From: a candidate division WOR-3 bacterium
Lineage (GTDB): Bacteria > Hydrothermota > UBA3073 > JACQXS01 > JAGMCI01
Direction: 5' to 3'
Length of the DNA stretch: 64,000 bases
Assembly (NCBI GenBank): GCA_023129325.1
Contig: JAGMCI010000011.1
Coordinates: forward strand, 45,549 to 109,548
Notes under the pieces: model-generated
The model's input: only the letters and a program-made list of their open reading frames with translations
Databases searched by the model: none
Told to the model about the DNA's origin: nothing
Translations under genes and position numbers: made by a program
In this document: positions 3,520 to 62,302 of the stretch, one piece after another
Position numbering within the stretch: position 1 is the first letter of the stretch
How the letters are laid out: every line of letters starts with the position of its first letter

Positions 3520-4599
3520 ATGCAGATTTTTTTACTTATAGTAGTTTTAAGTTTAATTAGATGGACACAAGCAAAGACATACCCAACTCTTATTGTTCGA
3601 GAGAGTCTTCCAAAGATAGAAGTTGAGCCATTCCATTTTTTCCCTTATCGGGGTATTTATTTGAATCATTATAGAGCTACAAGATTAAAAGAATATTTGC
3701 CTCATATTGACAAGACTGAGATAAATTGCATAGTAGTTGATTTTAAAGAAGCAAGAGGAATGGTAACTTATAATACTAATGTAGAATTTGCCAAAACTAT
3801 AGGTGCCAGAAAACCTTATATAAATCTTGAGCGTTTACTTTCTATGTGCAAATCTCATGGACTTAGACTTATCGGGAGGGTAGTGGTCTTTCAAGATTCT
3901 ATACTCGCCTGCTATAATGACGGTGAATATTCTATGAAGTCTCTTGATGGAAGAATCTGGAAAGATGGACATGGTAGGTGCTGGACAAATCCCTGTTTAA
4001 AAGAGGTTCAGAAATATAATATTGAGATTGCCAAAGACCTCACGAGGAGAGGTGTTCCTGAGATTCAATTTGATTACATTAGATTTCCATCAAAAACAGG
4101 CAGATTTAGACCTTATAAACTTGATTGTGAGGACAAAACAAAAGTTATCGCCAGTTTTCTAAAACTGGCAAGGCAAGAATTAAAGCCATTAGGAGCTACG
4201 ATTGCTGGTGATGTATATGGGTATGCACTCTGGTATCCTCTCAAGGGTGAAGGGCAAAATCTCAGGCTTATGGCAAAGTGGCTTGATATAATTAATCCAA
4301 TGCTTTATCCTTCGCATTTTCACAAACACCATGAAAAGTCATCTGGCCCAGGGAAAAGGGAGTATAACCTCATTTTTAAAAGCATAGTTAAAGGAGAAGC
4401 ACTTATTGGCGAATCCTTGTCCGCCTCAGGCGGAAAATTTGTTCCTTATATTCAGGGCTTTAATTTAAAGTCACCTAATTTTGGACCTGACTACATAGCC
4501 AACCAGATAGAAGCAGTCCGCAATTCTCGTGCCTGGGGCTACATAGTCTGGAATTCAAGAGGCAAATACAAACCCCTCTGGGAACTGCTTGAAAGATGA
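3520..4599 (+). CDS. Putative glycoside hydrolase (DUF4015/GH27-like TIM barrel)
   Basis: VVDFK, GRVVVFQD, EIQFDYIRFP, PMLYPSH motifs; N-terminal hydrophobic segment. Confidence 0.8.
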   Translation: MQIFLLIVVLSLIRWTQAKTYPTLIVRESLPKIEVEPFHFFPYRGIYLNHYRATRLKEYLPHIDKTEINCIVVDFKEARGMVTYNTNVEFAKTIGARKPYINLERLLSMCKSHGLRLIGRVVVFQDSILACYNDGEYSMKSLDGRIWKDGHGRCWTNPCLKEVQKYNIEIAKDLTRRGVPEIQFDYIRFPSKTGRFRPYKLDCEDKTKVIASFLKLARQELKPLGATIAGDVYGYALWYPLKGEGQNLRLMAKWLDIINPMLYPSHFHKHHEKSSGPGKREYNLIFKSIVKGEALIGESLSASGGKFVPYIQGFNLKSPNFGPDYIANQIEAVRNSRAWGYIVWNSRGKYKPLWELLER

Positions 4600-4706
4600 G
4601 TCACGGATGAACACGGATAACGACACGGAACTTCACTGATTTTCTAACCACGAATTAAAAAAAGGCACACAGATTAACACAGAAAAAACGCAGATAAACA
4701 CTGATT
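4600..4706. repeat. ACACGGAT/ACACAGAT-type degenerate tandem repeats
   Basis: cacggatgaacacggataacgacacggaa...cacagattaacacagaaaaaacgcagataaacactgat; complementary units recur at 10292-10360, 49550 and 60040. Confidence 0.6.
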
Positions 4707-4739
4707 TTTTTCTTGACTTTCTCACTTTACAAAAATGTC

Positions 4740-4808
4740 ACCTCACCTCCTCCGTGTTTGTGAAGTCCTAAAGGGATTTAGCGAAGTATTGCAAATACGC
4801 TGTTATAC
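4740..4808 (-). mobile_element. attC-like integron cassette site (69 bp) with a degenerate R' box
   Basis: Minus strand: GTATAAC-AGCGTATTTGCAA...TTCACAAACACG-GAGGAG-GTGAGGT; imperfect inverted repeat 12 nt after a stop codon; homologous to the site at 62223-62269. Confidence 0.6.
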
Positions 4809-4820
4809 GCAGTGGCGGTT

Positions 4821-5867
4821 CTATAGTTCATATAGCCAACTTCTTCCAATTTCTTCTGAATATCTTTTGGAATTATACTTACCTGGCAAACAGAAGACTA
4901 CCTGGACATCCGGATGCGACTGACAAAATAGATATGTAGCTACCGTTTGCAATTTGCTACACTGCGGAGTAATTGCTATATTGAAATTTTCGTAAAGTAT
5001 TCTCCCTTCTATCTCAGATATATAGGTTTTCTCAAGTTCATCAATGATTTTTGAAATGTAAAAAGTTGATATTGGTTTATTCTTTTTTAAATAAGGATAT
5101 TGTTCAAATACTCTAAACTTTTCATGCAACTTCATAGAAAATTGAGTTCTCCACTTAAAATATTCATGAGGTGAATCCCCGTAACAAGGAATTACGACAT
5201 TAGGTCGGTAGGTTTCCAAAAGTCCGATAGCTCGTGATGGCTCATATCCTACAAAGAAAATTAGAGTTGTAGGGAAATCTTCTTTGAAACTCCCTTTAAA
5301 ATCAGTAGGAATTAATGTTTCCCGTGCACCAGATGCTTGAAGTTTTTCACTTAATTTCATTATACTCTCATCATCTTTTTTCTCTGCAAGCGTTAGTATT
5401 TCATCTTGCTCATCTTCTTTGGGATAATAGTTTTTTGCTTCTGTATATAAGATAAAAATCTTTTTATCATAAAAAATAGTGTGTGCCATTTTTAATATAA
5501 GAAGGATCAAGAAATTTGTCATTCCTGAAATGTCAATAAAGATAGCTTCAATTTCTTCTCTCGGTATTTTCTTTAATCTATCTGTCAAATTGTCTCGGCT
5601 GAAAAGTAGATTATCTATATCAATTTTTACATTTTTAAGATGATAAGATGAGCATTTATCTAATGAGTCTTCCAGAAAATCTAAATTTTCTTTGTTATCT
5701 TCTTGGTGCACAGTGTACTCCGAGATAAAAGAATACTTGAAAACCTTTTCATTTAATTTTTGGAGGATATTAATTATTCCTTTCACTCTATCTTCAAATC
5801 CCCCTGCACAGATGTATAAAGAATTTTTTCTGTTTGTTATTAAGTCGGGTTTAAACTCCTGTATCAT
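4821..5867 (-). CDS. Uncharacterised Rossmann-like (CARF-like) protein, partner of the kinase-ATPase
   Basis: ICAGGFEDR, FIDISGMT, LYTEAKNYYP, FVGYEPSR, ITPQCSKLQ pattern resembles proteins I recall beside ORC/CDC6-like ATPases; ATG 5867 has a GGGG SD (ORF track starts at TTG 5891). Confidence 0.6.
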   Translation of the reverse strand: MIQEFKPDLITNRKNSLYICAGGFEDRVKGIINILQKLNEKVFKYSFISEYTVHQEDNKENLDFLEDSLDKCSSYHLKNVKIDIDNLLFSRDNLTDRLKKIPREEIEAIFIDISGMTNFLILLILKMAHTIFYDKKIFILYTEAKNYYPKEDEQDEILTLAEKKDDESIMKLSEKLQASGARETLIPTDFKGSFKEDFPTTLIFFVGYEPSRAIGLLETYRPNVVIPCYGDSPHEYFKWRTQFSMKLHEKFRVFEQYPYLKKNKPISTFYISKIIDELEKTYISEIEGRILYENFNIAITPQCSKLQTVATYLFCQSHPDVQVVFCLPGKYNSKRYSEEIGRSWLYEL

Positions 5868-8568
5868 TTTTATTGCCCCTTTTAAAGTCAAAAAGCATAG
5901 GTTGAGAATCGTCCTTTATACCTTTCTCAATTAACCTCTTCCTAAATCTATCTGGCTCTGTCAGAAATTCTTCAAGTTGTTTTTTGATGAGTCGCAAATG
6001 CTCTCTTTCCCTGAAGGTTGTTCTGAGTTTAGGAGTATATTTCTTGTGCAAAGTAAATTTTTGGACTAATCCCATCTGCTCTCTTGAGAAACTAAAACCT
6101 TTATCGAGAAACACAGAATGACGAATTAATTTTCCTAACAACTTCTCTGCATTGCCAGAGAGTTTTTCTGAATCTTTTCGTTCTATTGTAATCATTTCAT
6201 ATTTTCTACCTTTTTTCTTTGTTATCTCTCGCTCTAAGTATTTTCTTGAAATTTCACCAAAATTTCTAACAACATCAAAAATTTCTTTGCCTATGGATTC
6301 AATGTTGATTAGAGAAGCATATACTTCCTCAGAATATTTTCTAATTCCTTTGTCTTGAATTTCTATAGAGATTATATCCTCACCCTTTTTCAGTTTTTCG
6401 TGTTTTTGGGGGTCTCCGTATTGTTTAAAAATAGACTCGCAAATTGCTAACCCGTCCCGAACACTCCAAGAAGATAATTGAACAAGCAACTTCCACCCAC
6501 CGTATTTAGTTTTAGTGTAAGTTTTTTTTGATAAAAAATCAATTAACTTTTCATGTGTATAGGGCAGTTTTTTAAGATACTCTTTTATTTTTTTAGCGTA
6601 TCCCCCAATTTCTAATTGTCGATTTATTATTTTTTTAAGATACTCTTTATAATTATCCATCTCAGACATATCAATATATGCATAATCATGAGGTAGTTGT
6701 AATGCCTTGCCAAACATATCTTCAAAAGTATAGGCGTATTTATCTGTTGAGAACTTGCAGCAATATATTTCATTGTGACAAGCCATTAGACAATTGAGTA
6801 TCTTTTGGACTTCCAGATTGACTTGAGGTTCACTGACATCATCGAATATAATATAAAACCTTTTATCCAATAGCTCAGAAACAGATTTTTTAACTGTTTT
6901 AAAGAATTGTATCAAAATATTTTCATTTAATAATTTGCTTTCAGATGGGTATTTTGGTATATCTCCTAATATATCTATGCAACAATTCTCTTCATTTCTT
7001 AAAATAGATGTGAGCTCCTTAAAGGGTTTCTCACGAGCAGATATAGTCATTCTAATTTCCTTAAGCAACAGATAATCAGAAAGAAAATTCAATATTAATT
7101 CTGGTTTGGGCTCACTCGTGAATATTTCCTCATTGTACGCCTCAGCTATTAAAGAAACTGTTCTTCTAATAATTTTCAATATCAGTATGTGCTTAAGAAA
7201 TAGCTGATTTTTAAATTCTTTGAAATTGTACTGTTTATCAGAAAAATACTTAAATTCACCTTGCCTACAAGGGAAATAGATGCCAAAAATTCCTTTAAAA
7301 TAAGCTACTTTGTTTTTTATCTTTATATATTGGGGTTTTTGAGCTAATTTTATTAATCTAGGGATAAAACTTAACGATCTCAGATAAATTGTTTTACCTC
7401 CACCTCTTGGGCCCGAACATATAAGTGGTCCAAAATTTATAAAATTGCTGTATAGTCGAAGTTCGGGCTCAAACCGCTCAAGCCACAAGAGCTCTTTTAC
7501 ATCGTAGTTTTCAAATATAAGATAATTAAACGGTTGTTCTATAGAAAGTTTTTCACCACTTGGTATTTTCTCCGAAAGACCATTAATTACTGCTTCAATA
7601 GAAGTATATTTGTTTTGAATAAGATTACCATATATATAAAAAAGTCTCTCCTCTAATTTTTTTCTATCTATTTTGCCCGATGGAGTTAAACAATATTTTC
7701 TAATTATTTTGAGAAAGTTCTCTTTAAAATATTCAAAGTCAGTTTTCTCATATTCTCTGAACTCCCCAGATGAGTTTACCCCAATGAAATCTATGAGTCT
7801 AAAATGAAATATTCCTCGTTTTTGATATTCTTCTATTTCATCATCCTCTACTAAAATATTGTTATCATGAAGGTCTCCATGCATAAACCCATTGTCTTTA
7901 ATTGTTTTTAGTGCTCCTCCTACTTCCCTGATGAAATTTCTTAATGTTTCCTGTAAGGCCATGTTTGTATTTTTTGCTAAAAATTCCCTCAAGGAATCGC
8001 CTTCAACATATTCCATCACGACATACTTCAAATTTATATCAGTATAAGGAAATTCGCCCCAGTCAAATGGAACCACTAAATGCGAAGATTTGAGATGGAT
8101 TATTTTTTTAATCTTTTCTTCAAAATTTATATGATCTAATATGCCTGGTTTGAACACCTTCAGTACAACATCTCGTCCAGTTTTTTTTATATTTGCTTTG
8201 TAAGTTACAGAAGTAGAACCTTTGCCTAATGACTTCATTAAAGTGTATCCATTAATTATTTTAGGAGGTAAATTACTAATATCGTATTGGGAATATTTCA
8301 CCGTTTTTACTATGTCTTTCCCTTTTTCAGAGAGGCTAAGCACCTCTTCCTTTAATTCTATGAATTTATTGGCTATCAAAAAGTCCATTAGAGTATCAAA
8401 TTGGGGGAGAAGTTTCTCGACTTTTCCTTTTAAACCAGATAATTTAATCCCTTGGTGTCGACTAATATAGATTAGCAGTATTAATGCCTCCTTGTTCTTC
8501 AGAAGTTTTGTTTCTTTTTTATACTTTTCCAATAGTTTCCAAATTTCTCTTATGCTACTTGTTGTCAT
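5851..8568 (-). CDS. wHTH + Ser/Thr protein kinase + P-loop (ORC/CDC6/STAND-like) ATPase fusion
   Basis: Kinase LGKGSTSVTYKA, VVLKVF, VVMEYVEG, HGDLHDNNILV, LIDF; Walker A GPRGGGKT; Walker B FYIIFDD; N-terminal helix-wing pattern ending LSLSEKGKDIV. Confidence 0.85.
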   Translation of the reverse strand: MTTSSIREIWKLLEKYKKETKLLKNKEALILLIYISRHQGIKLSGLKGKVEKLLPQFDTLMDFLIANKFIELKEEVLSLSEKGKDIVKTVKYSQYDISNLPPKIINGYTLMKSLGKGSTSVTYKANIKKTGRDVVLKVFKPGILDHINFEEKIKKIIHLKSSHLVVPFDWGEFPYTDINLKYVVMEYVEGDSLREFLAKNTNMALQETLRNFIREVGGALKTIKDNGFMHGDLHDNNILVEDDEIEEYQKRGIFHFRLIDFIGVNSSGEFREYEKTDFEYFKENFLKIIRKYCLTPSGKIDRKKLEERLFYIYGNLIQNKYTSIEAVINGLSEKIPSGEKLSIEQPFNYLIFENYDVKELLWLERFEPELRLYSNFINFGPLICSGPRGGGKTIYLRSLSFIPRLIKLAQKPQYIKIKNKVAYFKGIFGIYFPCRQGEFKYFSDKQYNFKEFKNQLFLKHILILKIIRRTVSLIAEAYNEEIFTSEPKPELILNFLSDYLLLKEIRMTISAREKPFKELTSILRNEENCCIDILGDIPKYPSESKLLNENILIQFFKTVKKSVSELLDKRFYIIFDDVSEPQVNLEVQKILNCLMACHNEIYCCKFSTDKYAYTFEDMFGKALQLPHDYAYIDMSEMDNYKEYLKKIINRQLEIGGYAKKIKEYLKKLPYTHEKLIDFLSKKTYTKTKYGGWKLLVQLSSWSVRDGLAICESIFKQYGDPQKHEKLKKGEDIISIEIQDKGIRKYSEEVYASLINIESIGKEIFDVVRNFGEISRKYLEREITKKKGRKYEMITIERKDSEKLSGNAEKLLGKLIRHSVFLDKGFSFSREQMGLVQKFTLHKKYTPKLRTTFREREHLRLIKKQLEEFLTEPDRFRKRLIEKGIKDDSQPMLFDFKRGNKNDTGV

Positions 8569-9159
8569 TTATCTTACTCCTTTATATTTTACATAAGTAT
8601 AGTATATTGAAACTATTCTTATATCTTCAGCTATTTCTGATACTTTTTTACCCACCTTGCATTTATTGATATCATCCCTACAAAAAGTATCTAAATGTCC
8701 CTTACCCCCACGGATGAAGCCTATATTATCATTTAGTGTCCATGCGGAATGAGACTTACAATCGTTTGCATAGAAGCAATATATTTTTGAGACACACTCT
8801 GGAAGACCAGAAAAGGCACTTAATTCATGCTCTACCCCTGGACAATTTGGAACATATATAAATACAGCTATGTCGCACCAATGTTCTATTGAATATTTCT
8901 CAAAAGCGGTTATATTTGAGAATTCTTTCCCTTGCTTTTTTGCCTCTTCATATGCTTCTTCTGGTAATACTGCATTGTGCTTATTTTCTATCAACAATTT
9001 CTTGATTTGCAAACGCTTGTTATAACATGCCTTCGCATACTCATCAGGGTTTCCTTTACCGGGACCAAATATTAGGACTTTCAGTTTCTCTTTTTGTAGA
9101 GCATTTTCGTATTTTTTTACCATACTACTTTTTATAAATTCAATCTCACTATTGCTCAT
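8569..9159 (-). CDS. Nucleoside-deoxyribosyltransferase (NDT)-like protein resembling retron St85/Ec86-type effectors
   Basis: VLIFGPG...KR...VLPEE...E...CDIAVFI...PGVEHELSAF mirrors the IFLCG...PE...D.I.I..ESPGS.AELGAF pattern. Confidence 0.55.
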   Translation of the reverse strand: MSNSEIEFIKSSMVKKYENALQKEKLKVLIFGPGKGNPDEYAKACYNKRLQIKKLLIENKHNAVLPEEAYEEAKKQGKEFSNITAFEKYSIEHWCDIAVFIYVPNCPGVEHELSAFSGLPECVSKIYCFYANDCKSHSAWTLNDNIGFIRGGKGHLDTFCRDDINKCKVGKKVSEIAEDIRIVSIYYTYVKYKGVR

Positions 9160-9994
9160 ACTTTTTCACCTTGTTTTTATAGAAAACAAGAATAGAAGCG
9201 TGTTTGCTTGTCTCTTTAAGACTCATCATAGCTTTATCAATATATTCTTTTTTTATATCTATACCGATGGAGTTTCTGTTTAATTTCAAAGCCTCTAAAT
9301 TTGTTGTTCCTATTCCACAAAATGGATCTAACACAGTATTGCCATAAAAAGAATACATTTTAATTAACCTATAGGGAAGTTCATTAGGGAAAACCGCTGG
9401 ATGCTCTTTCTTGCTCACTCCATTTAAATACCATATTGGTTCCCTGAATTTTCTAAATTCTTCTTTTGTTATTCTAGATTTTTCTTTTATTTCTTTGGAA
9501 ACTTTTCTCCTTCCTATTTTTCTGAATACATGAATCGCTTCCAATGCCGTAGAAATCATAAAATTGGAAGGATAGGGATAACTACCAAATAGAACAGCAC
9601 CGTTCCGTGAGGTAGTTTTTTTCCAATAAATAGTACCCATAAATTTCAAGTCTTTGTGCTTATCCAAAAATTTCCATAAGTCTAAAATCAAATTTACAGT
9701 ATACTTTCTTTTCTCATCGTTTTTATTACTATAAATATTGCCCATATTTAAAGCAATTTTACCATCTGGTAATAATATCCTGATGCACTCTTTAAAAATA
9801 TTTCCCATTTTTATAAGATACTCTTCATACTTATCATTGAAACCAATCTGTTTATGATGCTTATAATCTCGGGCATTCCAATAAGGTGGAGAAGTAACTA
9901 TTAGTTGCACACTAGCATTTCTTAGCTCACGTAGTTCTTCATCGGTGCCACCTACATATAGCTCATGTATAGTTTTGTTGCATGTCTCATTCAT
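9149..9994 (-). CDS. Site-specific DNA methyltransferase, beta class (N4-C/N6-A)
   Basis: TSPPYW precedes HPAVFP and VLDPFCGIGTT (motif IV before motif I). Confidence 0.9.
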   Translation of the reverse strand: MNETCNKTIHELYVGGTDEELRELRNASVQLIVTSPPYWNARDYKHHKQIGFNDKYEEYLIKMGNIFKECIRILLPDGKIALNMGNIYSNKNDEKRKYTVNLILDLWKFLDKHKDLKFMGTIYWKKTTSRNGAVLFGSYPYPSNFMISTALEAIHVFRKIGRRKVSKEIKEKSRITKEEFRKFREPIWYLNGVSKKEHPAVFPNELPYRLIKMYSFYGNTVLDPFCGIGTTNLEALKLNRNSIGIDIKKEYIDKAMMSLKETSKHASILVFYKNKVKKYEQ

Positions 9995-10028
9995 ATTTTC
10001 ATCTTCCTATTATTCAAACTACTATTGT

Positions 10029-10048
10029 GTATAACTTATCTATATCCA
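10029..10048 (-). mobile_element. attI-like or core recombination site at the cassette 5' end
   Basis: Minus strand TGGATATAGATAA-GTTATAC; GTTATAC is the exact complement of the GTATAAC at the far end of the cassette (4802-4808). Confidence 0.5.
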
Positions 10049-10076
10049 ATTTTACTATAAAAAACACATTTGTCAA
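10049..10076 (-). promoter_or_regulatory. Sigma70-type promoter (Pc-like position) driving the four-gene cassette
   Basis: TTGACA-N16-TAAAAT immediately upstream of the GTT core. Confidence 0.6.
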
Positions 10077-10177
10077 GAAATAATTTAACACGAACAAGAC
10101 ACGAACAAAAACCAATCTCAATATCCGTATGGACAAAACACGAACTTACTCACAAAAATTTTTACAAAGAAAAATGG

Positions 10178-10252
10178 TTCGCCCCGTTTCCATACGGAAC
10201 GGGGTTCGTGTGCTGTTCGCCCCGCACCGAGATTTCTCTGGTGCGGGGTTCG
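10178..10252. mobile_element. Two CCCCG...CGGGG mini-elements, each with a TTCG target duplication, inside CACGAAC/GTTCGTG repeats
   Basis: TTCG-CCCCGTTTCCATACGGAACGGGG-TTCG (10182-10204) and TTCG-CCCCGCACCGAGATTTCTCTGGTGCGGGG-TTCG (10220-10248). Confidence 0.8.
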
Positions 10253-10359
10253 TAAATGTTCGTGCTGAGTTCGTGTTAAAACCTGTTTAATTTAATCTGT
10301 GGCTATTTCTCTCTGTGTGCTCTGTGAACTCTGTGGTTGCAACTTTGTGTGCTTTGTGG

Positions 10360-11424
<1,065 letters not shown>

Positions 11425-56086: not shown

Positions 56087-59000
56087 ATGAAAAAATGCAT
56101 TTTGTCTTTTTTCAGTATATTGTTTGTTTCTATGCCATTATTTGCTCCTACAATTAAAGTAGCAAGTTCTACAGCGAATAATCTTATAGTAGGAGTCTCT
56201 TTACCCGAAGTTGAATTTACAAAAAGGGAATATCAAGATGGGAATATCTACTCAAGCCTTAAAGTCCACGGCAGTGGTATATGGAAAATAGGTAATCCAG
56301 AGATTCCTTGTTTTGGTAAGTGGATTCTTGTCCCTAATGGAGCGAGTGCGCATATTAATACTTATCCGGGTAAACCAGTAATTTATAAGGATATTGATTT
56401 ACCACCTGTCCAGCCACCCCAGCCAGACTTAAAGAATGCCCCCCCTCAATACTTTACCAGGAATGAGCAAATTTATAATGAAGATAAGGATTACCCATGG
56501 AAGTTTGCCTTAATTGAGCCACTGAAAAAGATGCGTGGTCAGTCCTGCACTATTTTATGGATTTTGCCTTATCAATATAATCCAGTTAAGAAGACATTGA
56601 AAGTATATCCTGACTTACGAGTAAATGTTGATTTCTCTGGACCAATAAAACCAATACCGTCCAATTTAAAGAGCAAAAACTATGAAAAAAAGATTCTTGG
56701 TATGGCTCTCAATGCCAGAGAAGTTTTAAATGCCCAGGAGAATGTTAAGGATAGCAAGAGGGATAATAACAGTAAAACTAATGGATGTGAATTACTTATT
56801 ATTACACACGATGATTTTGAAAGTGCTGCTAATACATTGGCTGATTGGAAGATGAAAACCGGGTTAATAACAAAGGTGGCGAAAACCTCTATCATTGGGG
56901 ATACAACTGTTGATATTGAAGCTTATATAGATAGTGCTGTTAGTAATTGGAGTCCGGCACCGGAATATCTGCTATTTTTGGGTGATGCTGAATATGTTCC
57001 TACCTGGTATAAGAATTTTCATCCCTATCCATCTCAAGGACCCACAGGTACTGATATTTTTTATGCAGATATAGATAATCCAGCAGATTATGTCGCTGAC
57101 CTGGGTTATGGAAGATTATCAGTAGATACGCCCGAACAAGCAGATAGCTTGGTTGCCCGTATCATTAGATATGAGAAAATAGCAAATAGCAATAGTTATT
57201 ACTCAAATACTACAATGGCAGGTTGCTTCCAAGACGGTGCTTATGGTGACCCGCCAGACAGCGTGGCAAATAGGAGATTTGCTAAAACAAGTGAAGATGT
57301 AAGGAATTATCTGAATATTCAAGGATTTATGACGCAAAGGATTTATGCAACCTATAATGGATATGATTATACCGAAATATTTCCGAAATATTGGAGCACA
57401 TACTATGTTTTTGAAAATGATACTTCCGGTGTAGAAATTCCTGCTGATTTACAAAAACCCACTTTCCCCTGGAATGGCAGCACCGCAGATGTTTCCAATG
57501 CTGTTAATAATGGGACTTTCTTTTTATTGCACCGCGACCATGGGGGACGGAGTGGTTGGGGGGAGCCGTATTTCCGCAAGTGGGATGTAGATGCTCTTAA
57601 TAATGGAGAAAAAAGACCCATTGTCTGGAGTATCAACTGTAACACCGGTTGGTTTGATAATGAGACAGATAGTGTCGGATGTGGGACGGATTTCAGTGAC
57701 GAGTGTTTTGCAGAACATTGGCTTAGACACAATACTGGTGGGAGTTGTGGTCTTATTGCTGCTACAAGAGTTAGTTACTCGGGCATAAATGACAGATTGG
57801 TATGGGGATGGATGGATGCTATTTGGCCTGGATTTCTTACCTGGTGTAATAACCCTTATGGAGGCAGCGAGCGGATATATAGAATAGGAGATGTCTTAAA
57901 TTATGGGAAAGAATATATGAGGACAAAATATTATTTCGACGATTATATACGAACTGCTCTTGAAGAATTTCACTGGCTTGGAGACCCTACAATGATTATC
58001 TGGACAGGTATTCCAGAGATAATGGCTGTAAGCTATCCCTCTACTGTTTCCATTGGCTCAGGTAGCCTCACAGTATATGTTGAAACCACTCCCAAGGGAA
58101 CACCGATAGACAGTGCCTGGGTATGCGTTATGAAGGGTGATGAGGTTTATGAGCGGGGATTGACAGATGCCTCTGGAAATGTAATACTTTCTATATCGTC
58201 ATCAACTATTGGGACACTCTGGGTAACTACAATAGGAGAAAATTATATCCCAGATGAAGGTTCTGCCCTTGTTGTTTGCTATGGTGATGTAAGCCCAGAT
58301 TCAGTCATAAATCCGACAGATACTGTTTTTGTTGACTCTATCTACTTGCCCGGGGTATATGTAAAAAATATGGGAACAGACACAATTCAAGCTTTTGATG
58401 TCACTTGCACAATTGATACTTCAGGAGTTAAAGGCTACAGTGATATACAACCTGTTTCCAATCTTGCTGGTGGAGATAGTGTTATTGTGACATTTTCAGG
58501 ATGGACAGTTCCTTTTGCGAGAAAGAGTTATACAATTACTTTCTTTGCTTCAGGCACATTTTTGGTTGATACTAACCCTTCAAATGATACGCTGGTAAGC
58601 ACTGTGTATGAATATAATGATGCACCATTAGTCTCAGGTCTGCCTGATACAAGTTTTTCGGAAGATGATACTCTCTATATAAACCTTAATAACTATGTAT
58701 TTGATAGCGATGACCCAGATTCGTCTCTTAACTGGAATTATTCAATCTATGAAACTAAGAATAAAAGCGGTGTGTCTCTGAAAGCATCTCTACCAGCAAG
58801 TAGAGATAAAGGTCTAAGTTTGCCAAGATACAGTAAAAATAGTCCACTTTATGTAGATATTGACTTAACTGCTCACATTGCTACAATTACAGCTGACCCT
58901 GATTGGAGTGGTTCGCGAAATATTGTCTTTACAGCAGAAGACCCATGGGGACTAAGTGATTCTGATACAATGATTCTTACAGTCAAGTCTGTAAATGATG

Positions 59001-59887
59001 CACCAGTAGTATTTATCCCGGATACAAGTTTTAATGAAGATGATTCACTAATGCTTTATCTAAATGATTATGTTAGTGATGTGGATAATCCTCTTGATAG
59101 TCTTATATGGAGCTGTTCGGGAAATGATACTATTATTGTAGACATAGACCCTGTAACACATTGGGCAACCTTCTCTGCTCCAAAAAACTGGCGCGGCAGT
59201 GAACTACTTATATTTATGGTTGATGATGCTACCTCAAAGGCAACCACCACAGACTCAGCCACAATTACAGTTATATCTGTCAATGACCTACCTGTAATTG
59301 ATAGTTCTGCTCCAGAGTCGCCCTGTTCTACTTTTGTGGATTCAATTCTTTTATTTTATGTATTTGCTCATGATGTGGATGTAACTGACACATTAGCTTA
59401 TGACTGGATTATTAATGGGACTCTTGATACGACAACTTATACTGGAATTTATTCCTATTCAAGTTCAGAAGAGACAGTGGATACAATGAAAGTCAGGGTA
59501 AGTGATGGAGTATTGGGAGATTCAGTTATGTGGATAGTAACTGTCAAATCTATAGGTGTAGAAGCTGAAAGCCCTCAAGTACCTAATGATTTTTCTCTTT
59601 CACAAAACTGTCCAAATCCATTTATGCAAACAACTGAAATTAGATATGCGATTCCAGAGGATGTACAAGTAGAGATTGCTATTTACAATATACTGGGACA
59701 AAAAGTTATGACGCTGATAAACCGTAATCAAAAAGCTGGTTATTATGCAATAAAATGGAGTGGCATAGATGATTCTGGGGAAAGGGTAGCAAGCGGTATT
59801 TATTTTTACAGAATCAAAGCCCACCCAACGGATGGCGGGCAAGCAGAAAAATATACAGCAACTAAGAAAATGTATCGGATGAGGTAA
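56087..59887 (+). CDS. Gingipain-like C25 cysteine peptidase with propeptide, tandem cadherin-like repeats and FlgD-Ig/T9SS-like tail
   Basis: Signal peptide; YLLFLGD, GRLSV, HRDHG (His), SINC (Cys), LGDP; repeated NDAP...EDD units; SQNCPNPF...SGIYFY. Confidence 0.9.
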   Translation: MKKCILSFFSILFVSMPLFAPTIKVASSTANNLIVGVSLPEVEFTKREYQDGNIYSSLKVHGSGIWKIGNPEIPCFGKWILVPNGASAHINTYPGKPVIYKDIDLPPVQPPQPDLKNAPPQYFTRNEQIYNEDKDYPWKFALIEPLKKMRGQSCTILWILPYQYNPVKKTLKVYPDLRVNVDFSGPIKPIPSNLKSKNYEKKILGMALNAREVLNAQENVKDSKRDNNSKTNGCELLIITHDDFESAANTLADWKMKTGLITKVAKTSIIGDTTVDIEAYIDSAVSNWSPAPEYLLFLGDAEYVPTWYKNFHPYPSQGPTGTDIFYADIDNPADYVADLGYGRLSVDTPEQADSLVARIIRYEKIANSNSYYSNTTMAGCFQDGAYGDPPDSVANRRFAKTSEDVRNYLNIQGFMTQRIYATYNGYDYTEIFPKYWSTYYVFENDTSGVEIPADLQKPTFPWNGSTADVSNAVNNGTFFLLHRDHGGRSGWGEPYFRKWDVDALNNGEKRPIVWSINCNTGWFDNETDSVGCGTDFSDECFAEHWLRHNTGGSCGLIAATRVSYSGINDRLVWGWMDAIWPGFLTWCNNPYGGSERIYRIGDVLNYGKEYMRTKYYFDDYIRTALEEFHWLGDPTMIIWTGIPEIMAVSYPSTVSIGSGSLTVYVETTPKGTPIDSAWVCVMKGDEVYERGLTDASGNVILSISSSTIGTLWVTTIGENYIPDEGSALVVCYGDVSPDSVINPTDTVFVDSIYLPGVYVKNMGTDTIQAFDVTCTIDTSGVKGYSDIQPVSNLAGGDSVIVTFSGWTVPFARKSYTITFFASGTFLVDTNPSNDTLVSTVYEYNDAPLVSGLPDTSFSEDDTLYINLNNYVFDSDDPDSSLNWNYSIYETKNKSGVSLKASLPASRDKGLSLPRYSKNSPLYVDIDLTAHIATITADPDWSGSRNIVFTAEDPWGLSDSDTMILTVKSVNDAPVVFIPDTSFNEDDSLMLYLNDYVSDVDNPLDSLIWSCSGNDTIIVDIDPVTHWATFSAPKNWRGSELLIFMVDDATSKATTTDSATITVISVNDLPVIDSSAPESPCSTFVDSILLFYVFAHDVDVTDTLAYDWIINGTLDTTTYTGIYSYSSSEETVDTMKVRVSDGVLGDSVMWIVTVKSIGVEAESPQVPNDFSLSQNCPNPFMQTTEIRYAIPEDVQVEIAIYNILGQKVMTLINRNQKAGYYAIKWSGIDDSGERVASGIYFYRIKAHPTDGGQAEKYTATKKMYRMR

Positions 59888-60501: not shown

Positions 60502-61742
60502 AGAAGTTTGTCATTGAGGGAGGGCGTCCACTTAAAGGTGAAGTTACTCTTTCGGGCTCTAAAAATGCTTCTCTTCCTATTTTAGCCGCCACTTTACTTG
60601 CCCCTGGCGAACATATAATACATAATGTGCCAATGCTTGGTGATGTTAAAACAATGATAAAAATTTTAAAAGCTACAGGAGCAATTACGAAATTTGAAAA
60701 CCATACACTTGTTATAAATACAAAATCAATAACTAATTCCAAAGTTCCTTATGAGCTTGTTTCTACTATGAGAGCTTCTTTTCTCATTGCTGGAGCTTTG
60801 ATTGGTAGACTTGGCGAAGCTTATGTATCAAGACCTGGCGGCTGTGCAATAGGGTCAAGACCAATTGATGGACATTTAAAGGGCTTTGAGGCTCTGGGTG
60901 TAAAAATTGAAGAAAAACATGGATATATCAATGCAACTACCAAGGACCTCAAAGGAGCTGAAATATGGCTTAATGAACGCTCGGTTACTGGAACTGAAAA
61001 TATTTTGCTCGCTTCAGTATTTGCAAAGGGAGAAACACGTGTCACAAACTATGCTAAGGAACCACATGTTATTGACCTTATAAAATTCTTAAATTCTATG
61101 GGCGCAAAAATTAAGGCTCAAGACGATAGCATTATAATTGAAGGCGTTAAAAAACTTCAACCTAAAGAATATACTATATCCCCGGATTATAATGAAGCTG
61201 GGACATTTATGATTGGAAGCGCAATTACAGGCGGAGATATTTTCTTGAGAGATGTAAGATGGGAAGACTCAATCTCAGAGATTGCAAAACTTCGTGAAAT
61301 AGGAGTAGAGGTCAAAAAAGATAAGCTCGGTATAAGAGTGAAAAGAAAAAAAATAATAAAACCCTGCACTGTAAAAACCGCCCCTTGTCCTGGCTTCCCA
61401 ACTGACCTTCAGCCACAAATAACAGCCTTACTTACTCTCGCAGATGGCACTTCAATAGTGACAGAAACAATGTTTGAACAAAGATTTAATCATATTCCAG
61501 AGCTCCGAAGAATGGGCGCTCAAATAGAACTTGAAGAAAGGAGCGCCATAATTAAAGGGGTTTCTGAACTATCAGGCGCAAAAGTTATGGCTTCAGACAT
61601 TCGTGCAGGAGCAGCTCTTGTCCTTGCAGGACTTTCTGCAAAAGGAGTAACAGAAATATCAAGAATCTACCATATAGATAGAGGCTACGAAAACCTTGAA
61701 ACTAAATTAAGCACCTTAGGTGCCAAAATAAAAAGAGTATGA
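60498..61742 (+). CDS. murA: UDP-N-acetylglucosamine 1-carboxyvinyltransferase
   Basis: SGSKNASLP, MRAS, PGGCAIGSRP, GFPTDLQ, HIDRGY. Confidence 0.95.
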   Translation: MKKFVIEGGRPLKGEVTLSGSKNASLPILAATLLAPGEHIIHNVPMLGDVKTMIKILKATGAITKFENHTLVINTKSITNSKVPYELVSTMRASFLIAGALIGRLGEAYVSRPGGCAIGSRPIDGHLKGFEALGVKIEEKHGYINATTKDLKGAEIWLNERSVTGTENILLASVFAKGETRVTNYAKEPHVIDLIKFLNSMGAKIKAQDDSIIIEGVKKLQPKEYTISPDYNEAGTFMIGSAITGGDIFLRDVRWEDSISEIAKLREIGVEVKKDKLGIRVKRKKIIKPCTVKTAPCPGFPTDLQPQITALLTLADGTSIVTETMFEQRFNHIPELRRMGAQIELEERSAIIKGVSELSGAKVMASDIRAGAALVLAGLSAKGVTEISRIYHIDRGYENLETKLSTLGAKIKRV

Positions 61743-62212
61743 GAATTACAATTTTAATTTGGACAATTATAATATTTTTGTTAGTGGGTTGCAATAAACT
61801 AAATCATCAATATAAAGTTACTATTCCTGTTAATAAAGAAATTGTAGCAGATGGGGTTGGAGACCATAATGGTATCGCTTCAGAAGATGAGTTAAAATTC
61901 ATTGAAGAATATTTTAATTCTGACCCCGAAGCTTGGTGCATGGGTTACTTTCCACTCTCCTATGCAGGCAAAACTCAAATTCCAGCGGATACAGTTCTGT
62001 GGGCATTTAAGCAAAATAGCCTTGCAGGACCTTACAAAAGTGAAACGGAGTTAAGGGAAGCATTCAAAGGAGTTAATATAAGAACTCCGTGTGTGGGAGT
62101 ATATGTGCTTATATTAGATGAAGAATGCGAAATTACGCATCTTTTTCGAGCTCCAGGGCCTCAGTTTAGCAAGAGCGAATGGATTCAAATGAAAGTCGTG
62201 CTTGGTGGATGA
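61739..62212 (+). CDS. Hypothetical lipoprotein
   Basis: Lipobox LVGC; followed by an attC-like site. Confidence 0.6.
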   Translation: MRITILIWTIIIFLLVGCNKLNHQYKVTIPVNKEIVADGVGDHNGIASEDELKFIEEYFNSDPEAWCMGYFPLSYAGKTQIPADTVLWAFKQNSLAGPYKSETELREAFKGVNIRTPCVGVYVLILDEECEITHLFRAPGPQFSKSEWIQMKVVLGG

Positions 62213-62222
62213 TAAATACTGC

Positions 62223-62269
62223 ATCTAACAGCATATTCGCGGACTTCACAAACACACAGGATGTTATGC
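62223..62269 (+). mobile_element. Shortened attC-like site
   Basis: ATCTAAC-AGCATATTCGC-GGACTTCACAAACAC-ACAGGAT-GTTATGC; shares AACAGC.TATT.GC and GGACTTCACAAACAC with 4740-4808. Confidence 0.6.
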
Positions 62270-62302
62270 ATCATTGCTTCACAGAGAAATTGTGGGGATT
62301 AA

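Follow-up and report, generated by a model that had tools for sequence, protein, structure and literature searches.

The DNA analysed here (the window) is a stretch of 64,000 nt from contig JAGMCI010000011.1 of a candidate division WOR-3 bacterium, and window coordinates are positions in this stretch. We found that its segment 4746-10034, on the minus strand, is very probably one integron-type gene cassette that holds a complete four-gene operon and has been left stranded at a site with no integrase. The four genes, which like the cassette lie all on the minus strand, encode a DNA methyltransferase, a protein resembling nucleoside 2-deoxyribosyltransferases (NDT), a 905-aa protein with kinase and ATPase domains and a 356-aa protein with CARF-like domains (Table 1). 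The operon is closed by a member of a family of attC recombination sites, both boundaries of the cassette can be located, the homologous operon of a relative is one cassette, and the operon has spread to other hosts, an archaeon among them.

The operon ends at a member of an attC family

A preliminary description of this DNA had pointed to a series of short motifs around the operon, and all of them are found on the minus strand. Read in that direction, TTGACA (10076-10071) is followed by a 16-nt spacer, TAAAAT, TGGATATAGATAA and GTTATAC (10035-10029), and then by the genes. The final stop codon of the operon, TAG, occupies 4823-4821, GTATAAC comes 12 nt later (4808-4802), and GTGAGGT is found at 4746-4740, the span from R'' to R' being 69 bp.

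A DNA search of relatives matched window positions 4753-4824 at about 80% identity in several genomes of the same class and on another contig of the same genome. Nine close copies share one stem-loop with compensatory changes, for example TCCC/GGGA in some and TGCC/GGCA in others. Across 36 aligned sites both sides change in 16 of the 21 pairs, values equalled by none of 500 shuffles, and 89.6% of the cells are paired compared with 35-55% when the partner is slid; the 36-copy alignment was fitted to a covariance model, which favours these pairing figures. The same model-fitted alignment shows a strand bias, with 64 G-T cells against 36 A-C cells. AAC/GTT pairs are retained in 29-33 of the 36 copies, and the consensus boxes of the family (...TTTCGCCTAAC-G and GTTAGGCGAAGT..., that is GCCTAAC and GTTAGGC) are, by their sequence, the inverse core and core of integrons.

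The preliminary description had suggested looking for the same signature elsewhere in the genome, and it is there: a site at C25:770-850 scores 85 bits, and more family matches lie on contigs C38, C16, C1, C43 and C42. Covariance model R1 finds the family in 12 of 22 genomes of the class, including arrays of 3-5 sites in the same orientation, and model R2 in 44 of 151 sampled genomes of the phylum (35 of 76 genera). One-orientation arrays of 3-6 sites are seen in the relatives G018, G019, G021 and G011 and on a metagenome contig, L060. At 32 of 37 sites, the stop codon of an open reading frame (ORF) encoded on the opposite strand to the model lies no more than 60 nt from the R'' side; the mirror arrangement occurs in 6 of 37. 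The window follows the prevailing arrangement, with its attC 12 nt past the stop.

Cassette starts tend to be complementary to their own attC sites

Integron recombination cleaves within the conserved AAC/GTT triplet. If a cassette formed and moved as a circle recombining through its folded attC at AA↓C (G↓TT; the arrow marks the crossover), its first bases would be complementary to its own R''. In arrays of the family, we took as cassette start the stretch of 15 nt whose last letters are the AAC of the following site, and compared it with the R'' and extension of the same unit. Cognate pairs (n=22) reach a mean of 12.1/15, against 10.3/15 for non-cognate pairs (n=908); when the two sides of a site are compared where they stand, the value is again 10.3, and the cognate mean was reached by none of 20,000 permutations. 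Cognate pairing is thus the footprint expected if each unit was once a circle cut at AA↓C. The first cassettes behind the integron-type platforms of the relatives G013 and G011 (see below) also pair with their own R'', at 11/12 and 13/15. The first unit of the G012 platform, 4.2 kb long, was not counted as a large cassette: it has no cognate pairing, and an undetected site may split it.

For the window, the preliminary description had noted a complementarity of 10 nt between start and end, and the match proves stronger than that: 10021-10035 and 4802-4816 pair at 14 of 15 positions (11 Watson-Crick, 3 G-T). This score was equalled by 0.045% of 20,000 shuffles of the 365-nt upstream spacer (p 4.5e-4), and genome-wide only 4 AAC-anchored sites score at least 14 among 4,036,126 positions, the window site and the exact self-complement included. 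From the crossover positions together with the cognate pairing, the cassette is 4746-10034, or 5,289 bp, and we take it to have formed and moved as a circle in the way just described. With both covariance models and filters off, no attC was found at the 5' boundary (10029-10170).

Smaller units of the family were also seen in this genome. On C38, two attC sites (8796-8873 and 9339-9437; L052 2797-2874 and 3340-3438) lie 540 bp apart, enclose a 136-aa ORF and adjoin HEAT-repeat genes; their cognate pairing is 14/15, and they form a small integrase-less attC cluster. The only other site of the family within the window, at 62215-62273 (model on the minus strand), is 57 kb away. It is short, scores 31 and 37 bits, and lies 3 nt past the stop of an unannotated 157-aa ORF (61739-62212) that overlaps a gene of the EPSP-synthase family; a cognate cassette start for it was looked for and not found. 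A further site lies just beyond the window (G000:C3:111851-111949).

The operon is one cassette in a relative and occurs in other hosts

A search for homologues of the 905-aa protein led to five further loci with the same four genes, and the order methyltransferase, NDT-like protein, kinase/ATPase protein, CARF protein is kept in all five. The most informative is the metagenome contig L060 (L063 is an overlapping copy), whose operon is 74% identical to that of the window. With model R2, L060 has six sites on the strand opposite the genes: three before the operon, one after it and two further on. The one after the operon begins 5 nt past the last stop, scores 53 bits and folds at z -3.0. The L060 operon is therefore one 5,310-bp cassette between attC 4270-4372 and attC 9579-9682, with a cognate pairing of 13/15, and the earlier proposal that a four-gene operon can be one large cassette is borne out, the attC family being real and the L060 operon being bounded by attC on both sides.

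The boundaries of the likeness between the two loci agree with this. Nucleotide likeness (77%, BLAST) runs from the methyltransferase gene to just past R'', ending inside attC, and at the 5' end it begins, by eye, at GTTATAC, exactly at the GTT core where the preliminary description had placed the edge of the island. The cassette starts are GTTATACGTAATGGCGGTTT in L060 (core plus extension GTTATACGTAATGGC) and GTTATACACAATAGTAGTTT in the window; upstream of the G comes the previous attC in L060 and unrelated sequence in the window. We also observed that R'' and its extension are common to window 4808-4740 and L060 9579-9682 while the attC centres differ (GTTTGCGAAG type versus ATAAAAGAAG type), and that both types of centre are found elsewhere in the family. 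Every cassette in the six-site array of L060 (1-13080) looks defence-related, carrying an AIPR gene, an Mrr_cat gene with an NDT-like domain, the four-gene operon, an Mrr_N gene and a SIR2-like gene, and the array ends in a 175-aa fragment of a tyrosine recombinase.

A more distant copy, 51% identical, lies on L055, a contig of the metagenome-assembled genome (MAG) of Candidatus Argoarchaeum ethanivorans. Its neighbours are of archaeal type (DHQS II and a Pab1020-type RNA ligase). Past the last operon stop come 8 nt and then an attC-like site (22 bits, E 0.02), and two weaker attC-like sites come next, bracketing a HicAB pair. Free local alignment of the non-coding flanks of the window and L055 was no better than shuffles. 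In a set of 5.8 billion protein clusters, homologues of the 905-aa protein number 67 at E <=1e-10, of which about 41 are 44-78% identical, and include records labelled Patescibacteria as well as the Argoarchaeum MAG; the operon family is rare. Contigs of 4.8-6.7 kb, about the length of the cassette, carry 16 of the 41 close homologues, and assemblies may often break at cassette ends.

Table 1. Features of the cassette locus in the window.
Feature	Position	Strand	Remarks
Cassette proper, 5,289 bp	4746..10034	-	From TT of the 5' core to G of R'; placed by the AA↓C / G↓TT crossovers of the model alignment and by cognate pairing
5' core GTTATAC with extension GTTATACACAATAGT	10021..10035	-	R' half able to rejoin attC in a circular cassette; pairs with 4802-4816
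attC site	4740..4820	-	R'' extension 4820-4809, R'' GTATAAC 4808-4802, stem-loop, R' GTGAGGT 4746-4740; covariance models R1 and R2
DNA methyltransferase, N4/N6 type, 281 aa	9149..9994	-	PF01555 E 3e-42; PADLOC MTase_II E 2e-65
NDT-like protein, 196 aa, candidate effector	8569..9159	-	PADLOC NDT_II-A E 5e-4; weak
905-aa protein: N-terminal region, Ser/Thr kinase domain, ORC/Cdc6-like AAA ATPase	5851..8568	-	PF00069 E 6e-15; PF24389 E 8e-33; PADLOC CARF6--CARF_STK_AAA E 7e-19
356-aa protein, two CARF-like Rossmann domains	4821..5891	-	PADLOC CARF6 families E 2e-24; start uncertain, TTG 5891 or ATG 5867
Left junction AAAATTGGATATAGATAA↓G	10036..10056	-	Weakly like the crossover-proximal attI half of G013, G011 and G012
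Sigma-70-like promoter TTGACA-N16-TAAAAT	10049..10076	-	14 nt upstream of the crossover, outside the cassette; 11/12 positions
Terminator-like hairpin after tgt	10180..10201	-	Separates tgt from the promoter of the cassette
Downstream flank of short 'word' repeats	4646..4706	.	Inverted-complementary to 10294-10360, score 42, p ~0.012

Insertion site and putative promoter

The neighbours of the operon are housekeeping genes, a DUF4015 gene and an asnS-like gene on one side and tgt and fabH on the other, and the cassette now stands alone between tgt and the DUF4015 gene. Between tgt and the core there are 325 nt, mostly of a genome-wide repeat. The spacers at 10084-10280, 10294-10360 and 4646-4706 are built of words of 7-9 nt, namely CACGAAC, CACAGAG and the complements of these. 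Two G+C-rich hairpins stand between the arms of a 24-nt inverted repeat, and pieces of these repeats recur on at least seven other contigs. Since the outer flanks are inverted-complementary across the cassette, it seems to lie inside a former hairpin spacer. The upstream CGAAC words were considered as direct repeats of an attI and rejected, being part of the genome-dispersed repeat. Neither an Rfam scan nor a tRNA scan of the region turned up anything relevant; there was a single sub-threshold sRNA match at 10181-10256 and no tRNA nearby.

The preliminary description had supposed that the cassette entered an attI-like site. When the left junction, AAATTGGATATAGATAA↓GTTA, is set against the attI sites of relatives in a fixed register, 10/15 positions agree with G013, 10/15 with G011 and 7/15 with G012, and AAATTGG...GGATATA...A↓GTTA is retained in the left flank. 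In a free local alignment p is ~0.05, and the two palindromes of attI are absent. The likeness of the left flank to attI is weak, suggestive and no more. At the right junction, G↓TGAGGTGACA, the 11 nt GTGAGGTGACA match the R' extension of the family, GTTAGGCGAAA, at 8 of 11 positions. The R' triplet is GTG in the window and GTT in the family. The match at the right junction speaks for a target that resembled R' or attI and later changed T to G, not for a random genomic site.

The promoter-like sequence is the best (11/12 positions) of 23 such sites in 4500-10500; the number itself shows no enrichment, the shuffle mean being 24.8. The preliminary description had the unit begin with it, but it lies outside the cassette, 14 nt upstream of the crossover, and so belongs to the site. 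We infer that it acts as a promoter for the cassette, as Pc does for the first cassette of an integron, and that the operon would be transcribed from flanking DNA.

Recombinases and integron-type platforms

The genome of the window, 89% complete, contains no integron integrase that we could find, the best matches to TIGR02249 being two tyrosine-recombinase loci far under the 265-bit cut-off; an integrase may still be encoded in the missing part. With a single attC, no other attC within clustering distance and no integrase found, the locus fits the class SALIN (a single attC site lacking an integrase). The recombinases next to arrays in relatives lack the IntI-specific insertion.

Such recombinases would be candidates for having moved the cassette. 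In G013, G011 and G012 we found platforms with one layout, all in one direction: the gene of the recombinase comes first, then about 100 nt that hold two imperfect palindromes, then AAC(R)A↓GTTA and the first cassette. The closest solved structure to the G013 recombinase is IntI4 (VchIntIA, PDB 2a3v; E 7e-45), with 23 residues opposite 65 of IntI4 (residues 172-238), which we take to be the region of the integron-specific helix. The same protein passes the NCBIfam XerA-type model (235.8 bits, cut-off 220) and fails TIGR02249 (223 bits, cut-off 265).

The cassettes of the platforms in G011 (L054, G011:C2) and G012 (L064, G012:C9) are restriction-modification pairs of 1.9-3.3 kb each, of MjaI, DpnII and AccI type with their methyltransferases, and in G011 two ORFs, of 161 and 116 aa, share the recombinase gene between them. 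In a further relative (L045 825-2878, G019:C95), an array of five attC sites ends with a 281-aa IntI-like/XerA-like recombinase that stands immediately next to a Y2 transposase of the IS91 family. Its reading as an oddly oriented IntI was rejected, as it is paired with the IS91-type transposase, and the two are probably an IS91-type element inserted beside the array.

Weighing the cassette against other explanations

Several observations weigh against a cassette stranded at an integron site. The cores deviate from the strict forms GTTRRRY and RYYYAAC, as the preliminary description had cautioned: R'' (GTATAAC) is one Y position off, and R' (GTGAGGT) lacks the GTT triplet. The 69-bp imperfect hairpin described earlier holds in its span, in the reading of its R' and in its match to the family, and fails in its fold, which is at chance level: z is 0.00 for 4720-4825 (minus strand), no stabler than shuffles, and 0.04 and 0.02 for the two strands of 4736-4816 folded as DNA. 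The TIGR02249 cut-off is passed in none of the 22 class genomes, none of 272 phylum genomes has an IntI match at E <=1e-40 (the control genomes were silent too, so that the sensitivity of this search is unproven), and the array-adjacent integrases are without the IntI-specific insertion. Among the other loci with the operon, L062 has only a remnant of an attC after it and L061 none. The nearest relative, G001 (same family, other genus), has tgt, DUF4015 and fabH on three contigs with other neighbours and no synteny. A search of sequencing runs gave one with the locus, probably its source; none of its assembled contigs skips or circularises 4746-10034, and they contain no empty site, excision circle or alternative junction, rare forms being invisible in contigs. 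Finally, the role of the operon in defence is read from domain likeness.

The poor fold can be set beside the family. The window attC nevertheless matches the models (R1 81.1 bits, E 4e-20; R2 71.6 bits), and a site that thermodynamics alone would have rejected was rescued by the family covariance model. Compared with the family consensus and with L060, the attC stem and the 5' extension of the window differ mostly by transitions toward A/T, and the stem has three G-T pairs. With GTG in place of GTT, the drift of the stem toward A/T and the chance-level fold, this copy is probably immobile and fixed in place. The earlier proposal that it was locked in by decay of R' is accordingly a reasonable inference, not demonstrated.

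Two alternatives keep the cassette and differ in how it came to its site. The same cassette could have entered a secondary genomic site, of attG type, GTG being the original target and the left flank no relic of attI. The lack of an integrase and of a second attC nearby, the weak likeness to attI and the position within a repeat-built intergenic spacer whose outer arms still match are compatible with this, and isolated cassettes expressed from nearby promoters are described in the available text of the preprint of Loot et al. The same text gives GWT as the attG consensus of IntI1, which GTG does not fit. The 8/11 agreement of the right junction with the R' extension of the family is unexpected of a random genomic target, and the left junction shares GGATATA in the same register with two attI sites, so we regard such an origin as somewhat unlikely. 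Alternatively, the locus could be the last remnant of a complete platform that lost its integrase gene and the greater part of attI by deletion and kept the first cassette and the promoter. The layout in G013, G011 and G012 (integrase, attI of about 100 nt, G↓TTA and first cassette, in one direction) gives this a model, as in the window tgt stands where the integrase would be and is followed by the promoter and by a junction resembling the crossover-proximal part of attI. Against it, tgt and the core are only 325 nt apart, most of which is repeat, neither palindrome of attI is recognisable and the likeness is weak, and we consider a remnant unlikely.

Two further explanations do without a cassette. 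If the repeats were 3'-end hairpins, REP-like or terminator-like, the operon would have moved by other means and the match of its boundaries would be fortuitous. Sites just after stop codons, the poor fold of the window copy, a genome rich in intergenic hairpin repeats and the canonical IntI missing from the phylum search, with the limit on sensitivity given above, are all points for this view. Yet the family has conserved AAC and GTT boxes outside the stem, a cassette start is complementary to the R'' of its own unit, not of the neighbour (12.1 versus 10.3), unrelated genes are found in arrays, the likeness between window and L060 stops at the boxes, and some relatives have platforms in which a recombinase is followed by a G↓TTA junction; hairpins of this kind are therefore a very improbable account. 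That there is no cassette at all and that the cores are short A/T-rich words met by chance is suggested by the 7-nt length of the cores, by a genome of about 35% G+C and by promoter-like sites no commoner than in shuffles. It is refuted by the 81-bit match (E 4e-20), the pairing at p 4.5e-4 and the L060 operon between two attC sites, which leave chance a practically negligible probability.

Genes of the operon

The four ORFs of the cassette are tightly packed (9994-9149, 9159-8569, 8568-5851 and 5891-4821). The 196-aa protein has no Pfam or NCBIfam match; a profile of five homologues gives a weak match to the solved effector of retron Ec86 (E 7e-4, residues 48-181). The kinase domain of the 905-aa protein is similar to MAD6 and PglW. 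For the 356-aa protein, a predicted model (pLDDT 78.5, pTM 0.83) is matched by Foldseek with probability 1.00 to Csa3, Cam1, Can1 and Can2, and by this model the protein has a CARF-type Rossmann-like fold. The 905-aa and 356-aa proteins jointly cover the 1,187-position fused PADLOC CARF_STK_AAA profile (36-546 and 877-1179). All NCBIfam scores of the operon proteins are far under their cut-offs, and no named defence system matches the whole operon. A literature search found no description of the four-gene system; it did not cover the CARF census behind the PADLOC names.

From these domains, the operon probably serves anti-phage defence. Effectors of the retron Ec86 type are reported to degrade NAD+ or nucleotides. 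At low confidence, the methyltransferase may mark self DNA, the kinase/ORC-Cdc6 ATPase and the CARF protein may sense infection or a nucleotide signal, and the NDT-like protein could be a toxic effector that degrades NAD+ or nucleotides.

Relation to known integrons and defence systems

The sites of this family are like canonical attC sites (those of IntI1 and VchIntIA) in their AAC/GTT boxes, their imperfect hairpins of 59-107 nt, their position after an ORF and a cassette start complementary to its own R''. The G013 recombinase differs from canonical IntI in the shorter stretch opposite residues 172-238 of IntI4 (23 versus 65 residues) and in passing the XerA-type model while failing TIGR02249. 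The CARF6--CARF_STK_AAA and CARF6--CARF_CARF_CARF families of PADLOC correspond to the 905-aa and 356-aa proteins in that the two cover the fused profile; here they are split genes, always joined to a methyltransferase and an NDT-like gene. The kinase is of the kind seen in MADS and BREX, with a domain like MAD6 and PglW.

Integron cassettes are generally regarded as small. The available part of the preprint of Loot et al. describes SALINs and how promoters close by drive their expression. The window locus shares with them one cassette, one attC, no integrase or second attC near and a flanking promoter, and differs from the cases in that part of the preprint in its length of 5.3 kb, its four genes, GTG instead of GWT, flanks that are partly like R' or attI, and a host phylum in whose searched genomes we saw no canonical IntI, again at unproven sensitivity. 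A RefSeq survey reports, in the text available, no integron defence system of more than two components and no long loci (Darracq et al., bioRxiv 10.1101/2024.07.02.601686). Its sedentary chromosomal integrons carry anti-phage genes as cassettes, as do the arrays of L060, G011 and G012, whereas here four components lie in one cassette against two at most there; exceptions might be held in the supplementary tables of that survey. Archaeal integrons, clusters of attC sites lacking integrases (CALINs) and cross-domain transfer of cassettes are described, with attI directly downstream of the integrase, in the portion at hand of Ghaly et al. (2022, Sci Adv, PMC9668308), where attC clusters require less than 4 kb between sites and IntIs carry an IntI-specific domain. 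Common to that work and ours are a cassette family in both a bacterium and an archaeal MAG (L055) and an attI beside the integrase (G011, G012 and G013). The cassette of 5.3 kb exceeds the 4-kb rule and the recombinases lack the IntI-specific domain, and that portion of the paper makes no mention of Methanosarcinales or Halobacteriota.

As far as these partly available sources go, what is new is the size and complexity of the cassette, since SALINs, defence cassettes and archaeal integrons are already known. Taking the findings together, we tentatively suggest, while holding it quite possible that this goes too far, that in the phylum and in some archaea Xer/XerA-like recombinases without the IntI insertion may run integron-type platforms on which entire defence systems of several genes and more than 5 kb travel as single cassettes, also across the boundary between bacteria and archaea. 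The limit of two components at most could then reflect the 4-kb clustering rule and a Proteobacteria-heavy sampling, not the mechanism, and the operon might be an undescribed abortive-infection system, linked to methylation, controlled by CARF and kinase proteins and armed with an NDT-like effector. A four-gene system that is bounded as one cassette in L060 and recurs with attC sites in a bacterium and in an archaeal MAG suggests that immune systems can pass between domains by integron-type recombination even when they are complex and complete. It also suggests that present screens would split or miss cassettes of such size. The window locus would also be a natural example of a cassette turning into ordinary chromosome, with its core mutated, its stem eroding and its expression taken over by a flanking promoter, and the operon, which has about 40 close relatives in the 5.8 billion protein clusters, is a candidate defence system that is so far uncharacterised.

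Other genes of the window

Elsewhere in the window, at 56087-59887, lies a gene for a 1,266-aa gingipain-like C25 peptidase with a type IX secretion sorting domain, which places the host among the bacteria with a type IX secretion system.

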